A DNA stretch of 64,000 bases from Minisyncoccia bacterium. Lineage in GTDB: Bacteria > Patescibacteriota > Minisyncoccia > Phycocordibacterales > Phycocordibacteraceae. Under the pieces are notes generated by a model. That model saw only the letters and a program-made list of their open reading frames with translations, was not told the origin of the DNA and did no database searches. Shown here in pieces: positions 5,911-49,581 of the stretch; the first letter of the stretch is position 1; each line of letters opens with the position of its first letter. Both the position numbers and the translations under genes were made by a program. The stretch covers positions 35,200-99,199 of the forward strand of contig JBBQUV010000001.1 of assembly GCA_038212075.1 (NCBI GenBank), written 5' to 3'.

Positions 5911-5936
5911 CAAAGTATTTCTAGCCACCAAAACAA

Positions 5937-5963
5937 AAACAGCACGTACGTGCTGTTTTTGTT
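5937..5963 (+). terminator. rho-independent terminator after tRNA-Lys
   Basis: cagcacg/cgtgctg palindrome followed by tttttgttt. Confidence 0.6.
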
Positions 5964-6039
5964 TACTATGTGACGAGGTGGCTCGGTCACGAGTTGCGGA
6001 CGGATTGCTCCAAGTATTCGCAATCCGTCTCGCACTCTC

Positions 6040-6124: not shown

Positions 6125-6147
6125 ATAACTGCGCTTCGCTTGCTCTG

Positions 6148-6236
6148 TGCCGAGGGTGAGACTCGAACTCACATGAGGTGTTTAAAGACCTCTAGGGATT
6201 TTAAGTCCCCTACGTCTACCATTCCGTCACCTCGGC
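6148..6236 (-). tRNA. tRNA-Leu (anticodon TAA)
   Basis: Acceptor GCCGAGG/CCTCGGC, anticodon stem GGGGA/TCCCT with loop CTTAAAA, long variable arm, T-loop TTCGAGT. Confidence 0.8.
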
Positions 6237-6248
6237 AAAACGCACAGG

Positions 6249-6320
6249 AGGCCTGGGGGGGAATCGAACCCCCGCATGTAGGATTTGCAGTCCCAAGTGT
6301 TACCACTTCACCACCAGGCC
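6249..6320 (-). tRNA. tRNA-Cys (anticodon GCA)
   Basis: Acceptor GGCCTGG/CCAGGCC, discriminator U, anticodon loop CTGCAAA, T-arm GGGGG-TTCGATT-CCCCC. Confidence 0.8.
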
Positions 6321-29693: not shown

Positions 29694-30620
29694 ATGAAAA
29701 ACTACTATCGCATAATGCTTGGACGAAAAAGTAGCCACGCTGATGAGGCACATAAGGGCAATTTCGTTGCGGCGGGCTTCATTAAAGACAAGGACCTCAC
29801 GCGTCACCTACCTGACAATTGGCGTGATTTTAATAAAGAATTCATCCCATTATTTCTTGATCAGAATCCTGAAAAGACAAAGATATCAGCGGGTCTCGCG
29901 TGCGGAATGCTCTGGACTGTCGCTAAGGGGGTTTTGGTGGGAGACATAGTGCTCTGCCCGGATGGTAAGGGTAGTTACTACGCAGGCGAGGTTACTGGCG
30001 AGTATGAATATCATAAGGGCGAAACGTTGCCGCATCGTCGGTCGGTTCGTTGGTTCACTCGTGCCATCTCACGTGACGAAATGAGCGAACCACTCAAGAA
30101 TTCAGCAGGTTCGATTGGTACGGTCAGCAATATAACGAAATATGCGGAGGAAATTGAGGCGCTAATTTCCGGCAGTCTTCCTGCCTCAATCATTTCGACT
30201 GATGCGACCATTGAAGACCCAAGCGAATTCGCGCTTGAAAAACATTTGGAGGACTTTCTTGTTCAAAACTGGCATGGCACAGAGTTAGGTAAGCGATTCG
30301 ATATTTATGAAGAGGATGGTGAAAAGGTTGGGCAACAATACCCAAGCGATACCGGTCCCATTGATATTCTCGCTATCAGTAAAGACAAAAAAGAGATAGC
30401 TGTCATCGAGCTCAAAAAAGGTCGTGCAAGTGATGTGGTCGTGGGACAAGTTCAACGATACATGGGGTATGTGAAAGAAGAATTAGCTGAAGACAATCAG
30501 TCCGTGCGAGGCATCATCATTGCGTTCGAGAATGATGTCAAAATAAATCGTGCCCTCTCTGTTGCTCCGAACATTGAGTTCTACACCTACAAAATCCACT
30601 TTAAGCTAGAGAAAAAATAA
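29694..30620 (+). CDS. two-domain protein: N-terminal unknown domain plus a C-terminal PD-(D/E)xK nuclease-fold domain (restriction-endonuclease-like)
   Basis: C-terminal GPIDILAISKDKKEIAVIELKKG.....GQVQRYMGYV, a D...E-L-K nuclease signature with a downstream Q..Y segment. It starts 2 nt after the xis-like gene. Confidence 0.55.
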   Translation: MKNYYRIMLGRKSSHADEAHKGNFVAAGFIKDKDLTRHLPDNWRDFNKEFIPLFLDQNPEKTKISAGLACGMLWTVAKGVLVGDIVLCPDGKGSYYAGEVTGEYEYHKGETLPHRRSVRWFTRAISRDEMSEPLKNSAGSIGTVSNITKYAEEIEALISGSLPASIISTDATIEDPSEFALEKHLEDFLVQNWHGTELGKRFDIYEEDGEKVGQQYPSDTGPIDILAISKDKKEIAVIELKKGRASDVVVGQVQRYMGYVKEELAEDNQSVRGIIIAFENDVKINRALSVAPNIEFYTYKIHFKLEKK

Positions 30621-30758
30621 TTTCATGAGCAAAAGAGAAACAAATTCAAGTATGTCCAAAGAGCAGGAGCGAGCAGAGGATTGATGTGGTTGAATTAAAC
30701 AAGTTTGCAAAGCTATATAAAAAAGAATTAAAACATTTTATAAATTAACTTTAATATT

Positions 30759-31376
30759 ATGGATTCAAAAGAAACAAAAAATATATGGATAGTGGTCGTT
30801 GTTATTGCATTGATAGCGGGTGCATATTATTTTGGCACAGCATCAAAAAATCAAACTGGAGTTACAGATAATACACAAGATACTAATACGCTTACACCCA
30901 CCCAAGAAACTGCCACGCAACAAAATCAGGTTGCTCCAGTTGTTACCATTAAACCAAAAGTTACTGTCCCACAGAATACATACACTAACTTCGAGTTGTC
31001 AGAAAATCCAAAATATTTATTTAGCAAAGATTTTAACCCAAATAAAGCAAAGGTCTTTGGAGTTGGTATAGGTGACTTAAGAAGTAATATTACTTCTATA
31101 GTACCTCAACAAGAATACGGAAGCTGGGTAAGAACAACAAATTCAACTGCATATCGTATAGTAAATGGCATAGTGGTGGAAATAGCGCTTAATAATGATG
31201 GCATAGCTAATCTTTTTAGGACAGATGAAATTATTATAAAATTCGGTCAATCAGACCAAACTAAAACAACCGGTAACCCTCCATACACTACGACCACCTA
31301 TTACTACGTAAACAGAGGCTTGGTTGTTTATGATTATGGATCATCGGGTATAAAAGTAAATATTATTGGCAACTAA
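30759..31376 (+). CDS. hypothetical membrane-anchored/secreted protein (AT-rich gene)
   Basis: 205 aa, N-terminal TM helix, Thr/Gln-rich linker. Noticeably lower GC than the flanking DNA. Confidence 0.45.
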   Translation: MDSKETKNIWIVVVVIALIAGAYYFGTASKNQTGVTDNTQDTNTLTPTQETATQQNQVAPVVTIKPKVTVPQNTYTNFELSENPKYLFSKDFNPNKAKVFGVGIGDLRSNITSIVPQQEYGSWVRTTNSTAYRIVNGIVVEIALNNDGIANLFRTDEIIIKFGQSDQTKTTGNPPYTTTTYYYVNRGLVVYDYGSSGIKVNIIGN

Positions 31377-31381
31377 AATGT

Positions 31382-32287
31382 TTGAACAGAGCTGAGTTTT
31401 TTATGTCTATACCAGAAAACTTTTTTAAAGATTCGAACGGAATAATCAAGTGGCACCAAGAACACCACCCGAAATCTTACGAAAGCTATTTTCTGATAAA
31501 AGAGAAAGTTAAAAATTCCAAATTTTCTGGCTCGGCTGGACTTCTGCGAAATTTAGAAGGAAATAAAACTGTCACAGGATTTCTGTCTTTTTTGACTGAA
31601 ATAAATCTTGCCAATTTGTTTTTGGATAAGAAGGTTAAAGATTTGTCTTATGAACCGAAACATATGTCTGGTGTTGATTTCTCTTTTAATGACATCGCGA
31701 TATCTGTTAAGAATCTCCACCCAAAAAATTACGAAAAGAGCGAACAACAAGTAATAGATGCATTTCGTACGGCAGGAGGCGGTAAAACGAGTTTGACTCA
31801 TAAAAACTTCTCCAGTATTGCTATTGAAGTTAAAAAAACTGAAATGGGTACTTATGGCTGGGAGAGGTTAGAAACTGGACACAGCGGATTTCTCGATAGT
31901 GATTTATACGAAATGTCTGCTCCATTAAATTACATTGGAAAATTTGAACAGTCAGATATAAAAAATAACAAAAGGGTCTTATTTTTCTTTATTCAATCAA
32001 GTGATTTTGCACAGTATTATATTCAAGATATCGTAATTTGGTATTTTGGATATCCTGTTGAAAAGTATCAACCAATTTTTCAGAACGATATGAATTGGTA
32101 TAACAAGCTTCTAAAAACACCTCCTAAGAAAAATAATATTGATGCAATCGTATTTATGTATGCACCCAATACCTTATTGAGCTGGCCACTTGGCTGTTTG
32201 GGTGATGTATCAGATAAGGCGGCACGATTACAGATTTATGCGAAGGAAAAATCTTTTTCCGAACAGATAAAATTAATTTTATCTTAA
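31382..32287 (+). CDS. hypothetical protein (AT-rich gene)
   Basis: 301 aa, Lys/Asn-rich, no recognised motif; lies 6 nt after the previous gene, so likely an operon. Confidence 0.45.
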   Translation: MNRAEFFMSIPENFFKDSNGIIKWHQEHHPKSYESYFLIKEKVKNSKFSGSAGLLRNLEGNKTVTGFLSFLTEINLANLFLDKKVKDLSYEPKHMSGVDFSFNDIAISVKNLHPKNYEKSEQQVIDAFRTAGGGKTSLTHKNFSSIAIEVKKTEMGTYGWERLETGHSGFLDSDLYEMSAPLNYIGKFEQSDIKNNKRVLFFFIQSSDFAQYYIQDIVIWYFGYPVEKYQPIFQNDMNWYNKLLKTPPKKNNIDAIVFMYAPNTLLSWPLGCLGDVSDKAARLQIYAKEKSFSEQIKLILS

Positions 32288-32483
32288 GGGAGCAATCCTC
32301 GCTGTTTTATAATATTTCCTAAAAACGGCGGGGATTTGTGCGCGAACGGGAGGGTGGCTCAAGCGCATTTGCATTTGAGCCTCGGACATTTTCGCTAGGG
32401 CGTCCTGACTCACGGATGAGCGCCGCCGTTATCTTGCAATACAGAAATTCGAAGCGGAAGCGACACCACATACAGTCGATATG

Positions 32484-36663: not shown

Positions 36664-37086
36664 ATGCCGGACTTCATTAATCTTTGGGTAATAGGGATTT
36701 CAATGATTCTTTCCGTAGTCCTTGGTTTTATTTGGTACGGTCCATTGTTTGGAAAGAAATGGATGGAACTGTCCGGCATTCCTATGCCGAGCGAAAAACC
36801 ATCTATGAAAATGATGGCAAAACCTATTCTCTTGTCCTTGATTGGTGCCCTCTTTATGAGCTTCGCACTTGTGTCGGTAACCGCGTTTCATAACGCGTAC
36901 TGGGACGTGACCGGCTACGCCGCAGGCCTTTCGTTCGCATTCTTTCTTTGGCTTGGATTTATTGTGCCTCCGTACTTGAATTTTTCTGGATGGGAACAGA
37001 AATCGTGGACGCTCTTCTGCATTAATACCGGCTATTGGCTTGTTCTGCTTTTTGTTATTGCTTCGCTCGCTGTTGTCCTTGGATAG
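36664..37086 (+). CDS. DUF1761-like integral membrane protein
   Basis: 140 aa with four predicted TM helices. Confidence 0.45.
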   Translation: MPDFINLWVIGISMILSVVLGFIWYGPLFGKKWMELSGIPMPSEKPSMKMMAKPILLSLIGALFMSFALVSVTAFHNAYWDVTGYAAGLSFAFFLWLGFIVPPYLNFSGWEQKSWTLFCINTGYWLVLLFVIASLAVVLG

Positions 37087-37101
37087 GGTAGAATTTTAAG
37101 A

Positions 37102-37572
37102 ATGGAGCGGAATAAGGCGATACCTGCGGCGTATCTTTTGCTTGAAAAAGAAGGCAAGTTTCTTATCGCACGACGTTGTAATACTGGATATTCGGACGGG
37201 CAGTATCAGGTGCCTGCAGGGCATGTAGACGCGGGAGAGCTTCCAAGCGAAGCGCTTATTCGTGAAGCAAAAGAGGAGATTGGCATTGCTATAGCTCCTG
37301 AGGACGTGAAGCTGGTGCATGTTTCGTATCGCCCAAAGCACGACAATACGGATAATCGTGTGGATTTTTTCTTTACGGTGCAAAAGTGGGGTGGTGAAGT
37401 GGAAAATAAAGAACCACATAAGTGTGATGATTTGCAGTGGGTGTTGCCTACGGAACTTCCGGAGAACATGACCGCGCATGTGCGTGATGCCTTCGAGTGT
37501 ATTCAAAAAGGAATTATGTATAAAGAGCTGGATCTAGAATTTTTAAAACTGCACGGGCTGTATCGCCCATAA
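37102..37572 (+). CDS. NUDIX hydrolase
   Basis: Nudix box GHVDAGELPSEALIREAKEEIGI. Confidence 0.8.
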   Translation: MERNKAIPAAYLLLEKEGKFLIARRCNTGYSDGQYQVPAGHVDAGELPSEALIREAKEEIGIAIAPEDVKLVHVSYRPKHDNTDNRVDFFFTVQKWGGEVENKEPHKCDDLQWVLPTELPENMTAHVRDAFECIQKGIMYKELDLEFLKLHGLYRP

Positions 37573-37721
37573 CCTGCCTATGCAACAAAAGTACTGGATG
37601 ATTGCGACAATCGTGGGTGCGGTCATTATCGTTGTTGGCGTTATCGCACTTGTCGCTATTCCCGTGTAAGGGTTTGCAACTTTGTACGTCTATAGAGCGT
37701 AATAAGAGTATCGCCAAGGCC

Positions 37722-38195
37722 ATGAAAAAATTCTTCCTCTCATTCGTATTCCTGTTTGCCTTCGGTGCCTATGCGCTTTGGGCATCACAAAACCCTACGA
37801 GCGCTGATACTGTTACAGCGCAAACGACTCCAGTAACTGACCCGGTCACCATACCTATCAATACTCCAGCCACGCCAGTTATAACTCCCATCACTCCGGT
37901 GGCAACAGGAAAATATAAGGATGGTGCCTACACGGGAAGCGTCGCGGATGCGTATTACGGATATATTCAAGTGGAAGCAACGGTGAAAAACGGTGCACTT
38001 GCGGACGTTACTTTTCTTCAATATCCAAACGACCAACGCCAATCGCAATTTATAAACGAGCAAGCGATGCCCTTCTTAAAGAAAGAAGCACTTCAAGCAC
38101 AAAGTGCAAACGTGAGTGGTGTATCGGGCGCAAGCGATACCAGCATAGCGTTTCGCGAGTCGCTTGCCTCAGCACTCGCAAAAGCACACGTATAA
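37722..38195 (+). CDS. FMN-binding domain lipoprotein/secreted protein (ApbE flavinylation substrate)
   Basis: Signal peptide MKKFFLSFVFLFAFGAYA; Thr/Pro linker; FMN_bind-like YKDGAYTGS and flavinylation motif VSGVSGASDTS. Confidence 0.75.
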   Translation: MKKFFLSFVFLFAFGAYALWASQNPTSADTVTAQTTPVTDPVTIPINTPATPVITPITPVATGKYKDGAYTGSVADAYYGYIQVEATVKNGALADVTFLQYPNDQRQSQFINEQAMPFLKKEALQAQSANVSGVSGASDTSIAFRESLASALAKAHV

Positions 38196-38198
38196 GGT

Positions 38199-38945
38199 AT
38201 GCGAGAAATACGCGACATCATGGGAACGCCTGTGTCGGTTGAAATTGTTGACGTGCGCGCAACAAAGGAGCACTACGAACGGGTGTTTGCATATTTTCGT
38301 TCCATCGATGAACAGTTCAGTACCTATAAACAGGGAAGCGAAATTTCTAAAATCAATCGCGGAGACATTCAGTCGGCTGAGTACAGCCGACTGATGAAAG
38401 AAGTGTTTGAAAAAGCAGAAAACACCAAACAAGAAACAGCTGGTTATTTTGATATCGCCACGCCATCGGGCGCTATTGACCCTTCTGGGCTCGTGAAGGG
38501 TTGGGCGGTACAGAATGCGGCAGAACTCATTCGCGCCATGGGCTTTGATAATTTTTACGTAGAAGCGGGTGGTGATATTCAAACATCGGGTGTTTCGCAA
38601 GACGGTACACCGTGGTCACTTGGTATTAGAAACCCATTTACTCAAACCGAAATTGTAAAGGTGGTGTATCCAAAGGGGCGTGGTGTTGCAACGTCTGGCA
38701 CCTATATTCGCGGCGAACATATGTATGATCCTCATACTGGTATAGAACCCATGCACGACATAGTGAGCTTTACGGTGATTGGTCCAAACGTGTACGAAGC
38801 TGATCGGTTTGCAACCGCCGCGTTTGTAATGGGTACACGTGGCATTGAATTTGTTGAAAATCGCATCGGTTTTGAAGGGTATGCTATTCATCTTGATAAA
38901 ACAGCAACCGTAACCAGTGGATTTGAGACGTATACAACGCCATGA
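38199..38945 (+). CDS. apbE: FAD:protein FMN transferase (ApbE family)
   Basis: 248 aa with ApbE family patterns (MGTPVSVEI, GAIDPSGLVKGWAV, YVEAGGDI, VATSGTY). Confidence 0.8.
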   Translation: MREIRDIMGTPVSVEIVDVRATKEHYERVFAYFRSIDEQFSTYKQGSEISKINRGDIQSAEYSRLMKEVFEKAENTKQETAGYFDIATPSGAIDPSGLVKGWAVQNAAELIRAMGFDNFYVEAGGDIQTSGVSQDGTPWSLGIRNPFTQTEIVKVVYPKGRGVATSGTYIRGEHMYDPHTGIEPMHDIVSFTVIGPNVYEADRFATAAFVMGTRGIEFVENRIGFEGYAIHLDKTATVTSGFETYTTP

Positions 38946-39928
38946 TTACGGTTATTGATTCCATTCTAAATCGCATAACGATGTATCGGCTCGTGCTGTA
39001 CGAACTTTTATTTCTCGTTGCGAGCGCATGCGCGCTTGGTTTCTTTGGGGTTATAGCGTATAGCCCAGCGGCACTTCTATATTCGGGCGGTGTTATTTTC
39101 TTTACGGCATGGATAGCAAATGAAATCTTTGCGTATTTTTTTGACGCGCCAAGTAATCCTGAATCAACGTATCTGACCGCGCTGATTTTAGTGCTTATTA
39201 TTACGCCTCCACACACGCTGTATGACATAGCGTTCCTGAGTATCGCAATTCCTGCCGCGCTACTTGCTGTTGCCTCAAAGTACGTAGTTGCTATTCACAA
39301 AAAACATATTTTCAACCCAGCGGCATTCGGCGTTGCAGGAACAGCACTTCTGCTTGGCAGTGCGGCAAGTTGGTGGATTGGAACACCATGGATGATTCCT
39401 TCCGTGCTTGTTGGTGGGCTTCTTGTTGTGCGTAAATTGCGCCGCTTTGATTTATTTTTTGCATACCTCGCCGCATTTCTCGTGGGACTTTTTGCGTTCA
39501 ACTATCAGAAAAGTCTTTATCTTATTGCCACCATCACCATTCCGCACGCGCTCTTCTATGCTCCAGTGTTCTTCTTTGCAACCGTAATGCTCACCGAACC
39601 ACTTACGATGCCGCATACGAAGTGGTTGCGTGTTGCGTATGGGGCACTTATTGGACTTCTGTTTGTGCCACAAGTACATATTGGCTCGTGGTACTTAACG
39701 CCGGAACTAGCACTTCTCTTTGGAAACGTCTTTGCCTACATAGTAAGTCCGAAGGAAAAACTGATATTGACGCTTTTAAAGAAAATTCGTATTTCGCATT
39801 CGGTATATGAGTTTGTGTTTGCAAACCCGTACCCACTTCTTTTTTCAGCAGGGCAATATTTAGAGTGGACACTGCCGCACACAAGCCCCGATGCTCAAGG
39901 ACATCCGGCTTGGCGTGAAATTTTATGA
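38942..39928 (+). CDS. RnfD/NqrB-like polytopic membrane protein (putative flavinylated subunit) with the start of an FAD-binding segment at its C-terminus
   Basis: Motifs KKHIFNPAAFG (compare RnfD GQNPFNPAM) and FFFATVMLTEPLT (compare the RnfD SGAT...LTDPVT flavinylation region); C-terminal GQYLEWTLPHTSPDAQGHP resembles an FAD_binding_8 start. Confidence 0.6.
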   Translation: MITVIDSILNRITMYRLVLYELLFLVASACALGFFGVIAYSPAALLYSGGVIFFTAWIANEIFAYFFDAPSNPESTYLTALILVLIITPPHTLYDIAFLSIAIPAALLAVASKYVVAIHKKHIFNPAAFGVAGTALLLGSAASWWIGTPWMIPSVLVGGLLVVRKLRRFDLFFAYLAAFLVGLFAFNYQKSLYLIATITIPHALFYAPVFFFATVMLTEPLTMPHTKWLRVAYGALIGLLFVPQVHIGSWYLTPELALLFGNVFAYIVSPKEKLILTLLKKIRISHSVYEFVFANPYPLLFSAGQYLEWTLPHTSPDAQGHPAWREIL

Positions 39929-40406
39929 ACCATCGAGCACGTTTAAAAAACAACTGTTTGGAATGAAAACAGGAGCCCGCGTGGTGGCCTCACAGCTTTC
40001 CGGCGATTTTACTTTACCTAAAGACACAAACGAAAAACTGGTATTCATCGCAGGCGGTATTGGCGTAACACCGTTTAGAAGTATGGTGCGGCATTTGCTC
40101 GATACTGGTGAAAAGCGAGACATTGTTATGCTGTATGCCAATAGAATCAGTAGCGATGTTGCGTATCGGGAAGTGTTTCAAGAAGCGGAGCGCGTTTTTG
40201 GAACAAAAACAGTGTATGTTTCGGGCGATGGTAACCCATCACGCATTGACGCGGCACTCATTATGCATGAAGTCCCAGATTTTAGTGAACGTATGTTCTA
40301 TATTTCAGGCCCTCAAGCAATGGTAACCAGCATGGCACACACGCTGATCGATATGGGTATCCATCGTTCTCGTATCAAAAAAGATTACTTCCCTGGATTT
40401 GCGTAA
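39891..40406 (+). CDS. ferredoxin-reductase-like NAD(P)-binding domain protein (possibly the C-terminal part of the preceding gene via a frameshift)
   Basis: LVFIAGGIGVTPFRSM NAD-binding Rossmann motif; overlaps the preceding ORF by 38 nt in a different frame. Confidence 0.6.
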   Translation: MLKDIRLGVKFYEPSSTFKKQLFGMKTGARVVASQLSGDFTLPKDTNEKLVFIAGGIGVTPFRSMVRHLLDTGEKRDIVMLYANRISSDVAYREVFQEAERVFGTKTVYVSGDGNPSRIDAALIMHEVPDFSERMFYISGPQAMVTSMAHTLIDMGIHRSRIKKDYFPGFA

Positions 40407-40418
40407 AAGACGGAGATA

Positions 40419-40718
40419 GTGCATCCGCCCACGCCAAGTTATACTCCGCGTATGGACGACTTCTTGAAGATGGATATTTTCTTTTTTGTGGCGACCGTTG
40501 CTGTCGTTGTGGTAAGCGCCTGTGCCGCTCTTGTGCTTTGGCGGCTTCAAAGAATTCTCAGACACATTGAGCATATTTCAGGACAAATTTCTGCGGAGAG
40601 TGAAGCTATTCGACTTGATATTGCCGATATGCGTACTGACGTGCGTTCCAAGGGATTGATACGCTCTCTTTCTCATTTTTTGATAAAAGCAAAAAAGCGA
40701 TCAGATGAAGCATCTTAA
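40419..40718 (+). CDS. small membrane protein, hypothetical
   Basis: 99 aa, one TM helix; the start is uncertain (possible internal Met). Confidence 0.35.
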   Translation: MHPPTPSYTPRMDDFLKMDIFFFVATVAVVVVSACAALVLWRLQRILRHIEHISGQISAESEAIRLDIADMRTDVRSKGLIRSLSHFLIKAKKRSDEAS

Positions 40719-40754
40719 TGTAATGTTCATGATGGGGCGTGTAGGATAGAGCAT

Positions 40755-41141
40755 ATGACAAAAAATAAAAAGAATCAGGATGTCGTTAGGGCGGCGGAAA
40801 TAGGGGCTGGTATTGTTGCTATTGGGGCGGCCGCGGCGGCGGGATACTATTTTTATGCAACTAAGGATGCAAAAACGCATAGAAAAGAGCTATCGTCATG
40901 GGCGTCGGGTTTAAAGAAAGAAGTTATACGAGAAGTAAAAAAACTTAAAACAATGGATGCAGAATCTGTTGCGCACGCCATTGATTCCGCTGTTGCAACT
41001 TATGAAGGTGTGCGTTCTATTAAGCGAGCAGATGTGAACCGTGCCGCCCGTGAACTTAAAACAAACTGGCAGAAAGTTAAACAGGAAGCGGTGAAGGACG
41101 CGCCAAAACGTCGAACACCCGCAAAAGCAAAAAAGAAGTAA
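40755..41141 (+). CDS. hypothetical membrane-anchored protein with a Lys-rich tail
   Basis: 128 aa with an Ala/Gly-rich TM helix. Confidence 0.4.
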   Translation: MTKNKKNQDVVRAAEIGAGIVAIGAAAAAGYYFYATKDAKTHRKELSSWASGLKKEVIREVKKLKTMDAESVAHAIDSAVATYEGVRSIKRADVNRAARELKTNWQKVKQEAVKDAPKRRTPAKAKKK

Positions 41142-41188
41142 TACACGGACCTTTTCGAGTTCTGCGACGCTTTGGTATACTAAAAGAC

Positions 41189-42241
41189 GTGAATCGCATT
41201 TTTGCCGTACTCCTCCTCCTTACGCCCCTTGCGGTTGTTGCTGAATACCTGGGGTGGTCGCCTCTTGCTATCTTCCTTATATCTGCCGTGGCAATTATTC
41301 CGATTGCCAAATATATTGGGGACGCGACCGAAGAGCTTGCCGCCCGCGCAGGACCCGCAGTGGGAGGACTTCTGAATGCAACCTTTGGAAACGCCACCGA
41401 GCTCATCATTGGCTTGTTCGCCCTTCAAGCAGGACTTGTGGAAGTGGTGAAGGCGTCTATTACCGGTTCCATCATTGGCAACTTGTTGTTTGTGCTTGGA
41501 ACAGCAATGCTCGTGGGTGGGTGGGGAAGAGAACGTCAGCACTTTAATGCAACCGGCGCAAAGGCGCAGGGCTCAATGCTTCTTCTGGCGACAACGGCGC
41601 TGGTTATTCCGGCAATTTTTGTGTTTACTGCCGACGGTGGAAGCGACGTTACGGTTGAATACCTTTCTATCTTTGTTGCCGCGCTGATGATCTTGGGATA
41701 TTTCGCCAGCTTGTTGTTTACGCTCCACACCCACAAGCATTTGTTTTTGTATCAAGAAGAAGAACGCGTGACCGCTCCACACTGGAGTCTAACTAAAAGT
41801 CTTGTGGTGCTTTTTTTCGCCACTATTGGTGCCGCTGTGGTGAGCGAAATACTGGTCGGTGCCATTCGCCCCTTGATTGAGATTTTTGGGTGGACGGAGT
41901 TGTTCATCGGTGTAATCGTCGTTGCTATTGTTGGCAATGCCGCCGAGCACCTTTCTGCGATTACTGCGGCGAAAAAAGGACGCATGGACCTTGCACTTCA
42001 AATTTCTATTGGTTCGGCGTCGCAAATCGTGATGTTTGTCGCGCCGGTATTGGTACTGGTAAGCCTCTTTTTCGTACAGCCGATGAATCTTATTTTCAAT
42101 CTGTTTGAAATCATTGCTATTATTTTTGCGGTGTTTGTTACCAACTCCGTTATTGAAGACGGTGAGAGTACGTGGTTTGAAGGTTCGCAACTTTTAATCG
42201 CCTACGTGATTATGGCTGTAGCATTCTTTTTCCACCCATAA
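41189..42241 (+). CDS. Ca2+/H+ antiporter (CaCA family)
   Basis: Two alpha repeats, GNATELIIG and GNAAEHLSAI. Confidence 0.8.
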   Translation: MNRIFAVLLLLTPLAVVAEYLGWSPLAIFLISAVAIIPIAKYIGDATEELAARAGPAVGGLLNATFGNATELIIGLFALQAGLVEVVKASITGSIIGNLLFVLGTAMLVGGWGRERQHFNATGAKAQGSMLLLATTALVIPAIFVFTADGGSDVTVEYLSIFVAALMILGYFASLLFTLHTHKHLFLYQEEERVTAPHWSLTKSLVVLFFATIGAAVVSEILVGAIRPLIEIFGWTELFIGVIVVAIVGNAAEHLSAITAAKKGRMDLALQISIGSASQIVMFVAPVLVLVSLFFVQPMNLIFNLFEIIAIIFAVFVTNSVIEDGESTWFEGSQLLIAYVIMAVAFFFHP

Positions 42242-42244
42242 CCT

Positions 42245-44164
42245 ATGAGGGCTCTTGTTCACCATTCAAGTAAAAGTGTCCGACGCATACACGCGTTGAA
42301 AATGGTTGAATCATTTTTTGATGACTCGCTCGGTTCCGAATCGCGCCGTGCATGGGTTGTTCTCATTGCTATCGCGATTACGCTTATCGCGTATCTTTTT
42401 GTACCGACACTAAAACCCCTTTTGTATGTGGTCGCGATTATTGGCGTCCTTCCAACCGCAATTGAGGCGGTGCGCTCTACTGGTGAGGCGCGTATTTCCA
42501 TAGATACATTTAATGCGTTTGCGGTGGCGGCGTCACTGCTTGCTGGCCAACCTTCTTCTGCGGCGTTTATTGACTTGATGCTCTTATCGGCGTCACTTCT
42601 TGATATTTTCACCACTCAGCGTTCAAATCGCGCAACAGAAAAACTGCTTCGTATGAAGCCAACGCGCGCCACGCGAGAAACGTCTGCGGGTGCACTTGAA
42701 GACGTTCGTGTCGCTGAGCTTCGTACTGGTGACGTCGTAGTAGTGAAGGGTGGCGATCAAGTTCCTGTAGACGGTGTCATTACGTTTGGGGAAGGTTCAT
42801 TTAACGAAGCTTCACTCACGGGAGAATCTGCGCTTGTACACAAGCGCATTGGCGATCATGTGGTGAGCGGTACGTTAAATGAATCAGGAACCGTAAAAGT
42901 TCGCGCAACCGCCGTGGGCAAAGACTCCACGATTGAACGAATGGCAGAACTTATTCATTCCGCCGGTACGAATAAATCAAGCCCGGAACGTCTTGCCGAC
43001 AAATTCGCTGGTATCTTTTTGCCCGCAGTAGGTCTTGGTGGACTTATTGCATATCTGGTGACCGGAAATTTGACGATGACCATCGCTCTCTTTTTGGTGG
43101 CGTGCGCCGACGACATTGCGGTAGCGATTCCGCTTGCGATTACGGCGGCAATTGGGCAGTCGTCTCGTATGGGTGTGCTTGCAAAGGGCGGGGAACGATT
43201 GGACGAAATGGGGAGTATCACCACGCTCGTGCTTGATAAAACAGGAACGCTTACCTACGGTTCACGAAAAGTGAGTGCGGTAGAAATTGCTGATGGTATT
43301 GAAGAAAAAGAATTTTGGGCAACCGTTGGTGTCGCTGAAAAGTTTTCAGAACAACCAATAGGGCGTGCTCTTTTTGCTGAAGCGTGTGCTCGCGCGGGCG
43401 GCACGTGTCCTGATCCCGATTCATTTGATGCGGTTACCGGAAGCGGCATAAAGGCAAGGGCACATGGTCATGCTGTTATCATTGGCTCTCGAGTATTTCT
43501 CACTAGTTTGAAAATAAAACTTCCTGCTGAAACAGAAGACGCTGGTGGCAGTGCGATTTTCGTTGCGTTTGATAAAAAATACGCCGGCACCATTACGCTT
43601 GCTGATGTTCCGCGCACAGAAGCAAAAGAAGCACTCGCGCGTCTTCGCGCGCTCGGAGTGAAAACAGTAATGTTCACTGGAGATTCAGAACCGGTTGCGC
43701 GCGCAATTGGCGCGGCTCTTGGTATTGATGAAGTGCGTGCGCATATGGCACCTGAAGACAAATTGAAGGGTATTGAAGAACTTATGGCGAAAGGAGAAAA
43801 AGTGGGTGTTGTGGGTGATGGGGTGAATGATGCTCCCGCGCTTGCGCGTGCAGACGTTGGCATCGCTATGGGCGGCACCGGTATGGCGGTAACGGTAGAA
43901 GCGGCAGATATCGTTATTCTTACGGATAATTTGGATCGCATTGCAGACGTGATCACGCTTGCGCGCCGCACTCGCTCCGTGGTGTACGGCGACATGGTTA
44001 TTTGGGTCATTACGAACCTTGTTGGCTTCGCCTTGGTGTTTGCCGGAATTCTTGGACCCGTGCTTGCGGCGGTGTACAACTTCGCCACGGACTTTTTACC
44101 GCTTATGAATTCCGCCCGACTGTTCTCTCGCGGAAGGGTTCCGCACAATACGCGTAAAGCGTAA
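42245..44164 (+). CDS. cation-transporting P-type ATPase (P1B-like, no N-terminal metal-binding domain)
   Basis: DKTGTLT phosphorylation site, GDGVNDAPAL hinge, TGES-like actuator (LTGES). No CPC motif was seen (ACADD in the TM). Confidence 0.8.
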   Translation: MRALVHHSSKSVRRIHALKMVESFFDDSLGSESRRAWVVLIAIAITLIAYLFVPTLKPLLYVVAIIGVLPTAIEAVRSTGEARISIDTFNAFAVAASLLAGQPSSAAFIDLMLLSASLLDIFTTQRSNRATEKLLRMKPTRATRETSAGALEDVRVAELRTGDVVVVKGGDQVPVDGVITFGEGSFNEASLTGESALVHKRIGDHVVSGTLNESGTVKVRATAVGKDSTIERMAELIHSAGTNKSSPERLADKFAGIFLPAVGLGGLIAYLVTGNLTMTIALFLVACADDIAVAIPLAITAAIGQSSRMGVLAKGGERLDEMGSITTLVLDKTGTLTYGSRKVSAVEIADGIEEKEFWATVGVAEKFSEQPIGRALFAEACARAGGTCPDPDSFDAVTGSGIKARAHGHAVIIGSRVFLTSLKIKLPAETEDAGGSAIFVAFDKKYAGTITLADVPRTEAKEALARLRALGVKTVMFTGDSEPVARAIGAALGIDEVRAHMAPEDKLKGIEELMAKGEKVGVVGDGVNDAPALARADVGIAMGGTGMAVTVEAADIVILTDNLDRIADVITLARRTRSVVYGDMVIWVITNLVGFALVFAGILGPVLAAVYNFATDFLPLMNSARLFSRGRVPHNTRKA

Positions 44165-44206: not shown

Positions 44207-45202
44207 ATGGCTGATTCATACGAATCCCAGCTTATCGACCTGCGTGCGGGCAGGGACGTCTCCTTTTTCGACCTTTTGTCTATAGATCAGCTCACCAAGG
44301 CCGATATACGGCTTATTTTTGAACTTGCCCATGGCTTTAAGGAAGCGGGCACTGCAAAAATGACTCTCTGCAAAGGCCGTTCCCAAGTGAACGCCTTTTT
44401 TGAATCCTCAACACGTACGATGGCAAGTTTTGACCTCGCGGCGAAGAATTTGGGTATGGATACCACCAGCATTTCTTCCACCGGTTCCTCTACAAAAAAA
44501 GGCGAAAGCTTTATTGATACGGTTGAAACGGTTTCGGCATATGGACTTGCAACACTCGTGGTGCGCACCGCGCAGTCAGGCGCACCAGAATTTGCGGCGC
44601 GTCATATTGCCGCGGCGGTGATAAATGCTGGAGACGGATGGCACGAACACCCCACTCAAGGACTTTTGGATGCGATGACGATGCTTGAAGCATTCGGCAC
44701 TAAAGATTTGTCCGGAAAAATTATTACGATAGTAGGTGACATCACGCATTCGCGCGTGTTTGGTTCTCTGGTGCGTATTGTGAAAAAACTCGACGGGAAA
44801 GTGCGTATTGCCGCACCGGAAACATTTCTTCCAGATTTTGTAGAAAAGTTTGGTGTCGCGGTATACACCAACGTTGAAGACGCGCTGAAAGATGCCGATG
44901 TCGTATACGCGCTTCGTGTACAGGAAGAGCGAGGTGCAAAAGGGTACATTCCTACCATGCGTGAGTATTCAAAAACATTTGGTATTTCTGCCGCCCGCCT
45001 TGCACTTGCAAAGCCTACGGCAATTTTGATGCATCCTGGGCCCGTGATGCGCGACATTGATGTGCACTCCGCACTTGTGGCACGGCACCCCCAATCGCGT
45101 ATTTTGGAGCAAGTAAAAAATGGCTTTGCGGTGCGCAAAGCGATTTTGTGGTTGCTTGCTGAACGCTACGACCAAAAAAAGAAAACTTACACCACGATAT
45201 GA
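44207..45202 (+). CDS. pyrB: aspartate carbamoyltransferase catalytic subunit
   Basis: STRT, HPTQGLLD and HPGP motifs; adjacent to pyrC. Confidence 0.8.
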   Translation: MADSYESQLIDLRAGRDVSFFDLLSIDQLTKADIRLIFELAHGFKEAGTAKMTLCKGRSQVNAFFESSTRTMASFDLAAKNLGMDTTSISSTGSSTKKGESFIDTVETVSAYGLATLVVRTAQSGAPEFAARHIAAAVINAGDGWHEHPTQGLLDAMTMLEAFGTKDLSGKIITIVGDITHSRVFGSLVRIVKKLDGKVRIAAPETFLPDFVEKFGVAVYTNVEDALKDADVVYALRVQEERGAKGYIPTMREYSKTFGISAARLALAKPTAILMHPGPVMRDIDVHSALVARHPQSRILEQVKNGFAVRKAILWLLAERYDQKKKTYTTI

Positions 45203-46491
45203 GCTCACTACTTATTAAAGGAGGGCGCATTGTAGATCCGGCTTCACGCAAGGATACTATTGGTGACATCTTTGTGGTTGACGGTGTTATTCGCAAAATC
45301 GGAAAACTAAAAGAAAAAGCCGACGAAGTAATTAATGCGAAGGGGCTTATTGTTACACCCGGGCTTGTTGATATGCACGTGCATTTTCGTGAACCGGGGC
45401 GTGAAGACCAAGAAACCATTTTAACTGGCTCGCGTGCGGCACTTGCTGGTGGAGTGACTTCGGTTGCTACTATGCCGAACACAAATCCTATTGCTGACAA
45501 CCAAGCGGTCATTGAATTTATGGTGAATCGCGCCAAAGAGCTTCGACTCGTGAATGTGTTTCCGGTTGGTGCGACCACGAAAAAAACAGAAGGTGATTTA
45601 CTTTCGGAAATGTGGGAAATGAAGCGTTCGGGCGCCGTCGCCGTTACGGACGACGGTGTGGACGTGGAGAACGGAGGACTTCTTTTGAAAGCACTTGAAT
45701 ATGCAAAAACGCACGATTTGTTGGTGATGAGTCACTGCGAGACAGAAGAACTTGCTGATGGTGGAGTAATGCATGAAGGATGGGTTTCAACCGACATGGG
45801 ACTTCCTGGATTGCCCGAAGTTGCGGAAGATTTGGCGGCGCATAAAAGCATTTTGCTCGCGCGCCGAAGCGGCGCGCGCGTGCATCTTACGCACCTTTCA
45901 ACAAAAGGTGCCGTGATGGCAGTACGTGATGCAAAAAAATCAGGAATGAAAAACGTGACTGCAGATGTTTCTATACAGCACGCCGTGCTTACAGACGAGG
46001 AATGTCGCGGATACAATACGAATGCGAAGATGTATCCGCCGCTCCGCTCCGACGATCACGTGAAAGCGATTGTCGCAGGTATCAAAAATGGCACGGTAGA
46101 TGCGATTACCACTGACCACGCGCCGCACATTGAACCAGATAAAATTAAACCGTTTGTAGATGCGGCGCGTGGTACGGTGGGGCTTGAAACGAGCTTTGCG
46201 GCACTCTACACGTATTTGGTAAAACCAAAACACATTACGTTGTCCGAAGGTATTGCACTTATGACCTACAAACCTGCCCGTATTCTTGGGCAGAAAAAAG
46301 GAACACTTGCGGTGGGCGCAGACGCGGATATCGCACTATTTGATATTAAGAAAGAATGGAAGGTAGACCCCACGAAGTTTTATTCCAAAGGCAAAAACTC
46401 TGTGTTTGCAGGGAAGAAGCTTATCGGAAAAGCAGTGCACACCATCGTCGCTGGAGAAATAAAAATGAAAGACGGCAAGGTGCTATCCTAA
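45199..46491 (+). CDS. pyrC: dihydroorotase
   Basis: GLVDMHVHFREPG metal-binding motif and an amidohydrolase fold. Confidence 0.85.
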   Translation: MSSLLIKGGRIVDPASRKDTIGDIFVVDGVIRKIGKLKEKADEVINAKGLIVTPGLVDMHVHFREPGREDQETILTGSRAALAGGVTSVATMPNTNPIADNQAVIEFMVNRAKELRLVNVFPVGATTKKTEGDLLSEMWEMKRSGAVAVTDDGVDVENGGLLLKALEYAKTHDLLVMSHCETEELADGGVMHEGWVSTDMGLPGLPEVAEDLAAHKSILLARRSGARVHLTHLSTKGAVMAVRDAKKSGMKNVTADVSIQHAVLTDEECRGYNTNAKMYPPLRSDDHVKAIVAGIKNGTVDAITTDHAPHIEPDKIKPFVDAARGTVGLETSFAALYTYLVKPKHITLSEGIALMTYKPARILGQKKGTLAVGADADIALFDIKKEWKVDPTKFYSKGKNSVFAGKKLIGKAVHTIVAGEIKMKDGKVLS

Positions 46492-46495
46492 CCAT

Positions 46496-47572
46496 ATGCT
46501 TGGAGCGCCTTTCTTTGACCCGCTCAAAACCTATTACGAGAATTGGGAGAAAGGACCATTTAATGGATTTGCCGATGGCGTAGTGCTTGATGAAGGTCCT
46601 GCGCTTTTTGATTTTCTTGGTGGACGCATTTCGTATCCGCTTGGTATTCCTGCGGGACCGCTTTTGAACGGAAAGTTTGTAAAAGCGGCGATGGATAAGG
46701 GTTGGACGGTGCCGGTGCATAAAACGGTGCGTACGCGTACGCGAAAATGCAATGAATGGCCGAACGTTCTTGGGGTGAAAGATTTGCCCGGCGACCTTAC
46801 TCTTGAACGTGCGAAAGAACCTCTTGTGGTTACGAATGAATACAGCGAACCACTTTCCATAACGAATTCTTTTGGAAATCCTTCATACGAACCGGAAGTG
46901 TGGATGAAAGATTTAGAAGAGTGTATTTCGTATGCTCGCCCGGGAGAGCTCGTGATGTGCTCGCTTGAAGGAACAAAATGGGACGAAAACTGGACGACGG
47001 AAGAATATGTAAACGATTGGGCAAGTGGAATGCAGATGTTGAAGTCCGCGGGAGTGAAAGTGGTAGAAGCAAACTTGAGCTGTCCGAACGAAGGCGCGGC
47101 AAGTTTGCTTTGCTTTGACGTACCAAAGGTAAAAATGATTGCAATGGCAATCAAAGAGAAAATAGGTGATACACCACTTGTTATAAAAATCGCGTACTTC
47201 GGCGAAGACGAACTTCGAGAGCTTGTGAAAGAAGTGGGGAACATTGTGGACGGTTTTTCTGCAATCAATACCATTCCTGCTCCCGTAGTGAACCCAGATG
47301 GCACGCAAGCGCTTATTGGCGAGCACCGCGTTAAAAGTGGCATTTGTGGACACGCGGTGAAGTGGGCGGGCGTAGACATGGTTCGTCGTCTTGCAGTACT
47401 CCGCAAGGAATTTCATATGGGCTACGGCATTATCGGTTCTGGCGGCGTCACCGTGCCTGAAGATTTTCGTGAGTACCGCGATGCGGGTGCGGATGTAGTG
47501 ATGAGTGCAACGGGTGCCATGTGGAATCCGTATCTCGCTAAAGAAATTAAAGCGATGTATCCAAATGGCTAA
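46496..47572 (+). CDS. pyrD: dihydroorotate dehydrogenase
   Basis: NLSCPN and IIGSGGV motifs. Confidence 0.8.
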   Translation: MLGAPFFDPLKTYYENWEKGPFNGFADGVVLDEGPALFDFLGGRISYPLGIPAGPLLNGKFVKAAMDKGWTVPVHKTVRTRTRKCNEWPNVLGVKDLPGDLTLERAKEPLVVTNEYSEPLSITNSFGNPSYEPEVWMKDLEECISYARPGELVMCSLEGTKWDENWTTEEYVNDWASGMQMLKSAGVKVVEANLSCPNEGAASLLCFDVPKVKMIAMAIKEKIGDTPLVIKIAYFGEDELRELVKEVGNIVDGFSAINTIPAPVVNPDGTQALIGEHRVKSGICGHAVKWAGVDMVRRLAVLRKEFHMGYGIIGSGGVTVPEDFREYRDAGADVVMSATGAMWNPYLAKEIKAMYPNG

Positions 47573-48206
47573 TATGGAAACGGCACGCGAAGTCGCACGA
47601 GCACTCATTGCTATCGGCGCTATTGGATTTAGTGTTGATAAGCCAGTTACATTTGCTTCTGGCATCGTTGCTCCTGTATATGTTGATAATCGTAAATTTC
47701 CTTTTCATCCTGCAGAATGGACAAGGATAATAAATGGATTTGCGGATTTACTAAAAAAAGAAAATCTTTCTGTAGAGGTGATTGCGGGGGTAGAAGCGGC
47801 GGGTATTCCGCATAGTGCGGCGCTTGGATTCCATACCAATACGCCTTCCGTATTTATACGAAAAAAACCAAAAGGCTACGGGATGAATAAATTAGTCGAG
47901 GGTGGAAACGTTTCGGGAAAAAAAGTTGTTCTCGTTGAAGACCTTGTTACTACCGGCGGAAGTAGCTTGAATGCAGTCAGGGCACTTCAAGATGAGGGAG
48001 CAAAAGTAACGGACGTAATCGTCATCGTGACTTACGGCTTTCCTGAATCAGTAGAGGCATTCAAAAATGCAAATGTAACGCTACACTCTCTGACAAGTTT
48101 TCCTATCATTCTTGAAGAAGCACAAAAGCTTGGAAAGCTTTCTTCCGAAGACGCACAGATCATTGAAGCGTGGGCCCAGAACCCCCATCATTGGCGAGAA
48201 GCATGA
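47565..48206 (+). CDS. pyrE: orotate phosphoribosyltransferase
   Basis: PRPP-binding loop VVLVEDLVTTGGS. The start at MANMET overlaps the pyrD stop, and the ORF-track upstream extension is rejected. Confidence 0.8.
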   Translation: MANMETAREVARALIAIGAIGFSVDKPVTFASGIVAPVYVDNRKFPFHPAEWTRIINGFADLLKKENLSVEVIAGVEAAGIPHSAALGFHTNTPSVFIRKKPKGYGMNKLVEGGNVSGKKVVLVEDLVTTGGSSLNAVRALQDEGAKVTDVIVIVTYGFPESVEAFKNANVTLHSLTSFPIILEEAQKLGKLSSEDAQIIEAWAQNPHHWREA

Positions 48207-48787
48207 CCACCTATATTCTTCACGGAGGATATGTGAGGCACAGTAATGAATCTAACGATGCTTACTATCGTAGAGTAATTGAGCTTGTGCCCGAGGGAGG
48301 AACTATACTTTTTGTATACTTTGCCGCTCGTAACGACGAAGGAAATTATGAGGAACTCTATACTGCACAGAAGATGCAGATGGAGCAATTCGTAAATGGT
48401 AAACGCCTGACGTACGTATGTGCCACTCCAGAACACTTTCTTGAAGAAATTAAAAATGCAGACGCAGTACTTATGCGTGGAGGAAGTACCAATACATTAT
48501 TGGAAACGTTACGAACATATCCAGATTTAAAAAACGCGTTTGAAGATAAGGTGGTAACCGGTTCATCTGCTGGCGCATACGCTATCGCCGCATATAACTA
48601 TGACAAGTCACAGCGCACTATGCGCACTGGTCTAGGGCTACTTCAAGTTCGCGCGGTATGTCACTACCAGAGTGAAAACGAAGAAAATTGCGTGGATGAC
48701 GATGGTGTGACAATTATGAACGCTGTCCATGGGGAGCTACCGCTTATTGTTCTAAAGGATCACGAGTGGAAAGAATTCACCGTATGA
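48203..48787 (+). CDS. peptidase S51 family / class I glutamine amidotransferase-like protein
   Basis: GGSTNTLL.....GSSAGA catalytic Ser region; the ATGA junctions on both sides suggest it is co-translated with the pyr genes. Confidence 0.55.
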   Translation: MTTYILHGGYVRHSNESNDAYYRRVIELVPEGGTILFVYFAARNDEGNYEELYTAQKMQMEQFVNGKRLTYVCATPEHFLEEIKNADAVLMRGGSTNTLLETLRTYPDLKNAFEDKVVTGSSAGAYAIAAYNYDKSQRTMRTGLGLLQVRAVCHYQSENEENCVDDDGVTIMNAVHGELPLIVLKDHEWKEFTV

Positions 48788-49581
48788 ATCCAATTGAAAA
48801 ATACGATGCGCGGGTGGAGAAGGTAAATTCGCTTTTGTGCGTAGGACTGGACGCTGATTTTGAAAAAATTCCGGAACGATTCAAAACGTTATCAAACCCT
48901 CAGTTTGCTTTCAATAAATACATTATTGATGAGACGCACGAATACGCCGCGGCATATAAACCAAACGCCGCATTTTATGAAGCTCGCGGGGACAGAGGGC
49001 TTCGCGAACTTAAAATGACCATGGATTATCTTACGGAAAACCATCCAGATGTCTTCACTATATACGATGCAAAACGTGCAGACATTGGAAATACCAATAC
49101 GGGATATGTTTCTGCCATTTTTGATTGGCTTGGGTTTGATGCCATCACCCTTCATCCGTATCTTGGTGGAGAAGCACTCTCGCCGTTTCTAGAGCGAAAA
49201 GATAAGGTAAGTATTGTGCTGTGCCGCACGTCTAATCCTGATTCCAATGAATTTCAAAATCTTGTGGCGGATGGAAAACCATTGTGGCACCATGTGGCAG
49301 AACGCGTCGCAAAGCAATGGAACAAAAACGCCAACTGCATGCTTGTTGTTGGCGCTACGTATCCGGAAGAAATGAAAGCCATCCGTGCCATCGTTGGCGA
49401 CATGACGTTTCTTGTGCCTGGTATTGGTGCACAAGGTGGGGACGTGAAGGCAGTGGTTGAAGCAGGGAAAAATGCTGCGGGAAAGGGACTCATTATAAAT
49501 TCCTCTCGAGGTATTATATTTAGTGATGATCCACATGAAGAAGCAAAGAAATTGAGAGACGAAATTAATCTGTACCGCTAA
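48784..49581 (+). CDS. pyrF: orotidine 5'-phosphate decarboxylase (long type)
   Basis: LCVGLDAD and DAKRADIGNT motifs. Confidence 0.8.
   Translation: MNPIEKYDARVEKVNSLLCVGLDADFEKIPERFKTLSNPQFAFNKYIIDETHEYAAAYKPNAAFYEARGDRGLRELKMTMDYLTENHPDVFTIYDAKRADIGNTNTGYVSAIFDWLGFDAITLHPYLGGEALSPFLERKDKVSIVLCRTSNPDSNEFQNLVADGKPLWHHVAERVAKQWNKNANCMLVVGATYPEEMKAIRAIVGDMTFLVPGIGAQGGDVKAVVEAGKNAAGKGLIINSSRGIIFSDDPHEEAKKLRDEINLYR

Follow-up and report, generated by a model that had tools for sequence, protein, structure and literature searches.

The 64,000-nucleotide (nt) stretch analyzed here (positions 35,200 to 99,199 of contig JBBQUV010000001.1 from a Minisyncoccia bacterium; hereafter the window) contains a compact redox locus at positions 37722–40406. 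It encodes a flavin mononucleotide (FMN)-binding protein of the FMN_bind family, an ApbE-family flavin adenine dinucleotide (FAD):protein FMN transferase, and RnfD/NqrB-like membrane and NAD(P)H-binding domains. An Nqr/Rnf-like flavinylation-associated system for electron transfer has been published, and we consider it likely that this locus is a disrupted member of it, with a 44-nt deletion splitting its third gene, which encodes a single fusion protein in relatives. The features of the locus are listed below (L001 is the locus of the closest relative).

37722..38195, plus strand: FMN_bind protein, 157 aa (Pfam PF04205, E 2.9e-5, 25.1 bits, cutoff 22)
38199..38945, plus strand: ApbE-family FAD:protein FMN transferase, compact, 248 aa, without a signal peptide (Pfam PF02424, E 5.5e-45)
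38942..39901, plus strand: RnfD/NqrB-like membrane domain and first FAD-barrel strands, the 5' part of the disrupted fusion gene (PF03116)
39899..39902, plus strand: deletion junction, where 44 nt of the closest homologue are absent, with a frameshift (DNA alignment with L001)
39900..40406, plus strand: 3' part of the disrupted fusion gene, with the remaining FAD barrel and the NAD(P)H-binding domain (PF00175, E 2.9e-14)

A preliminary description of the sequence had reported four open reading frames (ORFs) on the same strand in this interval, and the ORF listing agrees. All four Pfam families predicted there (FMN_bind, ApbE, NQR2_RnfD_RnfE and NAD_binding_1) were matched in profile searches. 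The match of 38942..39928 to an RnfD/NqrB profile, on which that description was to stand or fall, is significant (PF03116, E 8.9e-7, 29.0 bits against a gathering cutoff of 27.7) and covers residues 146–267 only. The genes had been described as separated or overlapping by 0–4 nt. This holds for the FMN_bind and ApbE genes, which are 3 nt apart, and for the ApbE and membrane genes, which overlap by 4 nt (ATGA), whereas the membrane ORF and the NAD_binding_1 ORF overlap by 38 nt in different frames. The proposed module of four genes does not survive: there are three genes, and the last two ORFs are pieces of one gene whose counterpart in all 86 related loci is a single ORF of 490–551 aa, split in none.

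A database search with the membrane ORF returned ~4000 relatives. Nearly all among the matches listed are ~500–510 aa in length and carry a C-terminal PF00175 domain, and the named ones are mostly from metagenome-assembled genomes (MAGs) of Parcubacteria/Paceibacterota. The closest relative, P0002 (encoded at L001), has 503 aa and is 74% identical to the window membrane ORF. The membrane ORF aligns to approximately residues 1–318 of P0002, and residues 4–171 of the fourth ORF align to residues 334–503 (66% identical). Between PDARG and DIRLGVKF, P0002 reads MRRYFTIASAPEDG. Alignment of the window with L001 at the DNA level shows one 44-nt gap in the window at 39899/39900, located at the codons for GMRRYFTIASAPEDG. 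The membrane ORF leaves register after 39901 and reaches a stop at 39928, while the fourth ORF (39891–40406) is opened by an incidental ATG at 39891. Together, the last two ORFs make up one gene, split by a 44-nt deletion and a frameshift.

The absent stretch encodes (G)MRRYFTIASAPEDG and includes RRYFTIAS, the strand that binds FAD in FNR-type reductases (RxY[ST]). Among 103 homologues, conservation is complete at R321, R322 and S328 and at least 90% at F324, T325 and A327. The deleted stretch corresponds to strand E321–326 in the AlphaFold2 (AF2) model of a full-length homologue. The FAD-binding motif is absent from the window, and the NAD(P)H motif GGxGxxP is kept in the fourth ORF as GGIGVTP. 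All other family-invariant residues are retained on either side of the gap, so that the deletion is either very recent or an assembly artefact. Long genes elsewhere in the window are intact (ClpB, 894 aa; TopA, 793 aa; RelA/SpoT, 601 aa; P-type ATPase, 639 aa), indicating that the contig is not generally riddled with frameshifts and that the lesion is local. The window copy is probably dead or mis-assembled. Provided that the sequence is correct, the protein would be unable to bind FAD normally and the gene would be a recent pseudogene, since every other family-invariant residue is intact.

One database homologue, P0182, has a frameshifted tail directly after the PGQY motif of its FAD domain. 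The window is therefore not the only case in which the fusion gene is sporadically disrupted or affected by sequencing error.

It is possible, although we think it unlikely, that the module is intact in the organism and functions like its relatives, with the gap arising from an assembly or consensus error or from a minority variant chosen by the assembler. The retention of invariant residues on both sides would fit no lesion as well as a very recent one, the source, one 171-kb NCBI contig, carries singleton protein clusters, consistent with a MAG, and the frameshifted P0182 indicates that such defects occur in metagenome-derived sequences. However, a clean loss of 44 nt is atypical of homopolymer or indel sequencing error, and both the intact long genes of the window and the lack of a split gene in the 86 related loci speak against such an error. 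A functional natural split, in which a membrane subunit reassembles with a separate NAD(P)H-binding subunit, is very improbable. The fourth ORF does have its own ATG, and its overlap with the membrane ORF is of a kind often seen where translation is coupled, but the break lies inside the FAD-binding β-barrel and not at a domain boundary, and ~15 residues are lost, including the near-invariant RRYFTIAS. There is also no obvious Shine-Dalgarno sequence ahead of 39891, and the arrangement is seen in 0 of the 86 relatives. A programmed frameshift was rejected as well, since frameshifting could not restore the 44 missing bases and no relative is split. A deletion in a formerly single gene remains the explanation that we prefer.

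The organization of the intact module is clear from its relatives. Five of them, found by exact protein, encode an FMN_bind protein (~175–210 aa), an ApbE (~247 aa) and a fusion protein (~507 aa) on one strand. The three genes occur in that order at 71 of the 86 related loci; FMN_bind is directly upstream of the fusion gene without ApbE at nine, and five have the fusion gene only, some of them on short contigs. Synteny in related genomes, proposed in the preliminary description as a check, is therefore conserved. The family is widespread: a scan with one genome for each species gave at least 563 genomes with a relative, and an exhaustive HMMER search gave 456 clusters at 50% identity (E <= 1e-30).

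The system has been described previously. Meheust et al. (2021) defined "NQR/RNF-like systems" as flavinylation clusters in which one protein has an NqrB/RnfD-like domain at its N-terminus and PF00175 at its C-terminus (PMC8238504). An apbE and/or FMN-binding gene belongs to that definition, and both are adjacent here (PF02424 and PF04205). The definition also asks for a signal peptide or lipidation site on one or more of the flavinylation proteins; FMN_bind may supply it with its N-terminal hydrophobic helix, and ApbE has none. A single NqrB/RnfD-PF00175 protein is lacking in the window, where the two domains lie on separate ORFs of 328 aa and 171 aa. Huang et al. (2024) presented an AlphaFold-multimer model of the Ktedonobacter racemifer complex, in which the membrane domain is without the NqrB/RnfD flavinylation site and the covalent flavin of the outer subunit lies near an apparent non-covalent flavin site of the membrane subunit (PMC11334425). 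Judged by sequence, the locus in the window is by descent a disrupted member of this system, and not a new kind of system. It was fair to say, as had been done initially, that this is not a textbook operon; it is not an undescribed one either, given the publications and its wide distribution.

Our observations agree with these reports in the combination of apbE with a membrane-anchored FMN_bind protein and a PF03116-PF00175 protein, in the lineages represented (candidate phyla radiation (CPR), Actinobacteria and Chloroflexi-type), in the absence of the NqrB/RnfD flavinylated threonine from the membrane domain, and in the proposed flow from NAD(P)H to the outside. They differ in that the fusion gene of the window is split with its FAD motif deleted, and in that the family now comprises the 456 clusters given above, compared to 127 clusters first reported. 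A further difference, the lack of a leader on ApbE in all copies examined here, is discussed below.

That the genes are stray remnants of a degraded rnf/nqr operon, and not a self-standing system, is hardly credible. The membrane protein has the RnfD/NqrB fold and FMN_bind is the domain family of RnfG/NqrC, as would be expected of such remnants. However, the trio with its FNR fusion recurs at the 71 loci across many lineages, with otherwise unrelated neighbors, and the family has invariant motifs of its own together with a collapsed flavinylation loop (see below). In addition, phmmer searches with E. coli RsxA, B, C, D, G and E gave no other Rnf-type ORF in the 64-kb window, in agreement with the initial observation that other Rnf/Nqr subunits are missing from it, and none was seen beside the module at the related loci examined. 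No second copy of the fusion gene was found within the window; a 506-aa ORF at 62345–63865 was considered and rejected, as it encodes an HlyD-type protein. The locus is best explained as a damaged copy of the self-standing three-gene module.

A full trio with ~52% identity is also present in L033, L042, L045, L053, L080 and L082, which are high-GC contigs (57–68% GC, up to 1.0 Mb) labeled Alphaproteobacteria, Phyllobacterium or Mesorhizobium. The FMN_bind proteins of these loci are longer (236–341 aa), and their ApbE proteins are leaderless too. These loci could represent a real spread beyond Patescibacteria and Chloroflexota, or mislabeled or contaminated assemblies.

The membrane domain adopts the fold of NqrB and RnfD. 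A single-sequence phmmer search of the fusion protein against the PDB gave FNR-type matches only, and a profile of the membrane domain was required to reach RnfD. Foldseek searches with the full-length model were likewise dominated by the FNR part; hence, the 328-aa ORF of the window was modeled alone. Its AF2 model (predicted local distance difference test (pLDDT) 89; predicted template modeling score (pTM) 0.85) matches NqrB or RnfD chains in all of the top 15 Foldseek hits against the PDB (probability 1.00, E 1e-5 to 1.4e-3, template modeling (TM) score 0.48–0.58). These chains are V. cholerae NqrB and RnfD of A. woodii, A. vinelandii and C. tetanomorphum, and nothing further was significant. 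In the model of the full-length homologue (pLDDT 92), the C-terminal half matches FNR-type reductases, including the FAD domain of NqrF.

With the membrane-domain profile, alignments were obtained to RnfD (8ahx_D, E 2.4e-4) and E. coli RsxD, and in each of them TVMLTEPLTTP of the family pairs with FFI(A/L)TDPVT(S/A). The TVMLTEPLT block had been placed at the position of the flavinylated threonine of RnfD, and we reject this assignment: the block corresponds to RsxD 286–295 (ILTD289PVT), ~100 residues downstream of T187, and aligns with the TDP motif of RnfD/NqrB. Alignments of RsxD to NqrB equate RsxD D289 with NqrB D346, and RsxD N119/N122 with NqrB N200/N203. The family residues H121 and N124 (KKHIFNP; P0002 numbering) are placed on RsxD N119/N122 by a low-scoring N-terminal alignment. 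H122, N125 and E219 of the window, mapped via RsxD, would then be equivalent to NqrB N200, N203 and D346, two of the three being conservative substitutions. The H, N and E (P0002 H121, N124 and E218) are invariant in 103 of 103 sequences. In NQR, mutagenesis has shown that N200, N203 and D346 of NqrB hold the riboflavin (PMC9293633). The HIFNP and TEP blocks may together form the counterpart of this riboflavin pocket, and a bound flavin is predicted there.

The membrane subunit had also been proposed to be flavinylated, which the alignments do not support, as the loop that bears the flavinylated threonine is collapsed. RsxD 132–220, an 89-residue segment with T187 in the sequence GISQAT, is reduced to a 14-residue loop in the family. 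The short loop keeps the sequence [SG]A[ST]WW (Ala 98%, Ser/Thr 91%, WW 100%) and would lie on the outer face, according to the positive-inside rule applied to the model helices. Since the upstream Asp that belongs to the ApbE motif is missing and 9% of the members are without Ser/Thr at this position, [SG]A[ST]WW is not regarded as a family-wide flavinylation site.

The FMN_bind protein starts with MKKFF, followed by a hydrophobic helix (MKKFFLSFVFLFAFGAYALWA), a Pro/Thr-rich linker of ~40 aa, and a domain ending in VSGASDTS. The presence of this ApbE motif, noted from the outset, is supported by its conservation: SGA[ST] is found in 81 of 82 FMN_bind orthologues (SGAT in 55, SGAS in 26). In the match of the orthologue profile to 8p2a_A, an FMN-binding domain of solved structure (E 5e-18), SGAS pairs with SGAT. 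The two lysines precede the N-terminal helix, whose Kyte-Doolittle hydropathy across orthologues has a median of 1.72 (19-residue window). The protein had been suggested to be secreted or lipid-anchored. The helix and linker are compatible with the former, while lipoprotein anchoring is rejected, as a lipobox Cys was not found in any of the 81 orthologues; nor was a twin-Arg motif, so that export of a pre-flavinylated protein by the twin-arginine translocation (Tat) route is rejected as well. The FMN_bind domain is predicted to be Sec-exported, extracytoplasmic and tethered to the membrane, with FMN covalently bound to SGA[ST].

The ApbE protein has the conserved motifs IDPSGLVKGWA, GVATSGTY and GEHMYDP, which are invariant in orthologues and align to those of solved ApbEs. 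Matching the His of GEHMYDP with V. cholerae H257 depends on an assumed numbering offset. The orthologue profile matches 6nxi, 2o18, 3pnd and 7esa (E 1.6e-32 to 1e-23), with the alignments beginning past the signal or lipobox region of these proteins. The window ApbE begins at the first strand of the fold, and no in-frame upstream extension is possible. Profile position 1 is within the first residue or two in 63 of 72 ApbE ORFs, and the few longer ORFs have non-hydrophobic extensions. No signal peptide was detected in any of 70 orthologues, where the maximum Kyte-Doolittle value (19-residue window) does not exceed 1.6. Lacking a hydrophobic segment and an upstream extension, ApbE is predicted to be cytoplasmic, whereas its target is predicted to be exported. 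This ApbE lineage is also without ~48 residues between the first and second conserved blocks (profile 87–89 corresponds to 6nxi 98–147).

One way to resolve this mismatch would be for flavinylation to take place before Sec export or in its course. ApbE is reported to be active on short peptide tags. Read-through of the stop codon between FMN_bind and ApbE was considered as a route for export of ApbE and rejected, since the two genes are in the same frame in the window and not in L001 or L004. ApbEs located in the cytoplasm have been described, but their substrates are cytoplasmic too (PMC12052999). The soluble fumarate reductase system of Klebsiella pneumoniae, covered by the same review, has an ApbE without a signal peptide, as the module does; the substrate is cytoplasmic in Klebsiella, whereas that of the module has an export or anchor signal. 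The mismatch is not mentioned in the two descriptions of the Nqr/Rnf-like system, according to a text search of PMC8238504 and PMC11334425. The novelty that remains consists of the leaderless ApbE and the commonness of the module in Patescibacteria. The lack of a leader throughout is relevant to any reconstitution of the system.

Based on these results, an intact module would operate as follows. The first gene would provide a Sec-exported, membrane-tethered FMN_bind protein that carries FMN covalently on the Ser/Thr of SGA[ST], attached by the compact ApbE flavin transferase encoded by the second gene. The third gene would provide a protein of ~507 aa, in which a membrane domain of the RnfD/NqrB fold is joined to an FNR-type FAD/NAD(P)H module on the cytoplasmic side. 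NAD(P)H would reduce the FAD of the FNR module, electrons would pass to a non-covalent flavin in the HIFNP/TEP (H/N/E) pocket in the membrane, and then onward to the covalent FMN of FMN_bind on the outer face and to an extracytoplasmic acceptor. The path from NAD(P)H through an RnfD/NqrB-like protein to a flavinylated FMN_bind protein, put forward in the preliminary description, fits the evidence and has been proposed before (PMC8238504, PMC11334425). In the window copy, where the fusion gene is disrupted, the chain would fail at its first step, provided that the gap is not an artefact.

The family could alternatively function as a minimal redox-driven ion pump, or a respiratory-like or extracellular electron transfer (EET) outlet, and not as a simple assimilatory or repair reductase, with NAD(P)H oxidation coupled to Na+ or H+ movement by the NqrB/RnfD-fold domain. 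This appears improbable. NqrB and RnfD do belong to ion-translocating complexes, and the family has invariant acidic or polar residues embedded in the membrane (E73, K112, E218, E254 and N261; P0002 numbering). However, the NQR residues equivalent to H/N/E bind riboflavin and have no effect on the Km for Na+ (PMC9293633), the subunits to which coupling has been attributed (NqrD/E or RnfA/E) are absent, and no acceptor gene is conserved beside the module. The published view is one of simple, unidirectional electron transfer (PMC11334425).

A broader reading of the family, which we hold as rather doubtful, combines cytoplasmic attachment of FMN ahead of or concurrent with Sec export (or an unrecognized topology of the complex) with a role for the module as the main, possibly energy-coupled, exit route for NAD(P)H electrons in quinone-less Patescibacteria.

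Several points count against assigning the locus to a disrupted electron-transfer module of the Nqr/Rnf-like type. An artefact of MAG assembly or consensus calling could account for the 44-nt gap. The Pfam match to RnfD is barely over threshold and confined to the C-terminal half of the membrane domain, and the N-terminal alignment to RsxD underlying the mapping of H and N is low-scoring. The search for other Rnf/Nqr genes covered 64 kb of the genome only. The leaderless ApbE, with its target domain on the outside, leaves the flavinylation step topologically unexplained. Finally, we infer the cofactors, direction of electron flow and acceptor of the system.

Comparison with better-known systems places the module close to Na+-NQR and Rnf. 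It shares with Na+-NQR of Vibrio cholerae (7xk3, 8a1t) the NqrB fold of the membrane domain (Foldseek E ~1e-5) and the predicted equivalents of the riboflavin-site residues N200/N203/D346, invariant as H/N/E. Its FMN_bind protein is equivalent to the NqrC domain, which carries a covalent FMN of the SGAT type, and its FNR module resembles the FAD/NADH domain of NqrF. The module differs in lacking NqrA, NqrD and NqrE, and the 2Fe-2S domain of NqrF. The loop that bears T236 with its covalent FMN in NqrB is collapsed, the NqrB-like domain and the FNR module form a direct fusion, and a quinone site is not evident. In the pocket of the module, electrons would flow in the direction opposite to that in NQR.

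Similarities to Rnf (E. coli RsxD/RsxG; 8ahx, 9eri, 7zc6) include the fold (TM score 0.54–0.58), the FNPA and (T/S)(D/E)P motifs, and an RnfG-type FMN_bind partner. In contrast to Rnf, the periplasmic segment of RsxD that bears T187 is replaced by the short loop ending in [SG]A[ST]WW, RnfA/B/C/E are missing, and the donor would be NAD(P)H via the fused FNR module and not via RnfC. The flavin-based EET system of Listeria monocytogenes (Ndh2, EetA/B, FmnB, PplA) also combines an ApbE-type transferase with an extracytoplasmic FMN_bind protein in a monoderm and sends reducing power outward. Listeria relies on a quinone pool (DmkA/B, Ndh2), and its ApbE is a lipoprotein (FmnB), whereas the module lacks a quinone step, its ApbE is leaderless, and the RnfD-like/FNR fusion would serve as the transmembrane wire.

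To our knowledge, neither quinones nor conventional respiratory chains are present in Patescibacteria (CPR). If it moves NAD(P)H electrons across the membrane, this widespread three-gene device would be among the few candidate membrane redox systems in these organisms, with possible roles in iron acquisition, redox repair of the envelope, or redox balancing. The significance lies with the family, which is already described bioinformatically and whose function we infer, and not with the window copy. What the locus adds is a naturally disrupted allele, a proposed residue-level map of the family motifs onto the riboflavin pocket of NqrB, and the leaderless cognate ApbE.

The surroundings of the module are variable. 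Its upstream neighbors encode a PNPOx-like protein, a DUF1761 protein and a NUDIX hydrolase, of which only NUDIX and PNPOx recur in the closest relative (L001). The downstream neighborhood (40419–44164), listed below, is not common to the relatives examined.

Start of the 40419–44164 stretch, directly downstream of the module, plus strand: 99-aa membrane protein and 128-aa protein with a weak YtxH-like match
41189–42241, plus strand: CaCA-family Na/Ca-exchanger protein
42245–44164, plus strand: P-type ATPase, 639 aa

Clustering of the neighboring ORFs of related loci revealed no conserved acceptor-type gene beside the module. The neighbors that recur, each at a minority of loci, are a pair of extracytoplasmic function (ECF) sigma and anti-sigma factors, MacB-type ABC genes, and DUF5666/5667 proteins. 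VIT1 is located near the module at one related locus. The ECF sigma gene is followed by a putative anti-sigma factor of ~240 aa without a Pfam match, on the same strand and no more than 1.5 kb upstream of FMN_bind, at 13 of 78 loci (for example, L003:2348-3629, L004:998-2298 and L006:2383-3656), and lies within ~4 kb at 21 loci. In some lineages, this arrangement hints that the module is controlled by envelope stress; no ECF sigma factor of that kind is present in the 64-kb window. A promoter and terminator scan of 37000–41200 was uninformative, with fewer promoter-like sites than in shuffled sequence and terminator-like sites that are intragenic.

Between the NUDIX and FMN_bind genes, a 29-codon ORF (37580–37669, plus strand) encodes a single hydrophobic helix (MQQKYWMIATIVGAVIIVVGVIALVAIPV), and may represent a small membrane protein or a chance occurrence.

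The window otherwise contains housekeeping genes, including those for IF-2, ClpB, TopA, RelA/SpoT, GltX and LexA, a pyrBCDEF-type cluster, and seven tRNAs. The pyrimidine cluster (44207–49581, plus strand) encodes aspartate carbamoyltransferase, dihydroorotase, a DHO_dh-family protein, a phosphoribosyltransferase, a Peptidase_S51 protein and orotidine monophosphate decarboxylase. The DHO_dh-family protein has 358 aa, with the Pfam match at residues 122–352 only, in a host expected to be quinone-less. The GC content drops to 0.37 at 30001–32300, compared to ~0.48 for the window. This low-GC stretch, which may be foreign DNA or a defense-related islet, includes an ORF for a NucS/PDDEXK-type nuclease (29694–30620) and two ORFs without a Pfam match (30759–31376 and 31382–32287). 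Four of the tRNA genes, on both strands, are clustered within 650 bp at 5668–6320, and the other three are located at 13323, 16396 and 29092.

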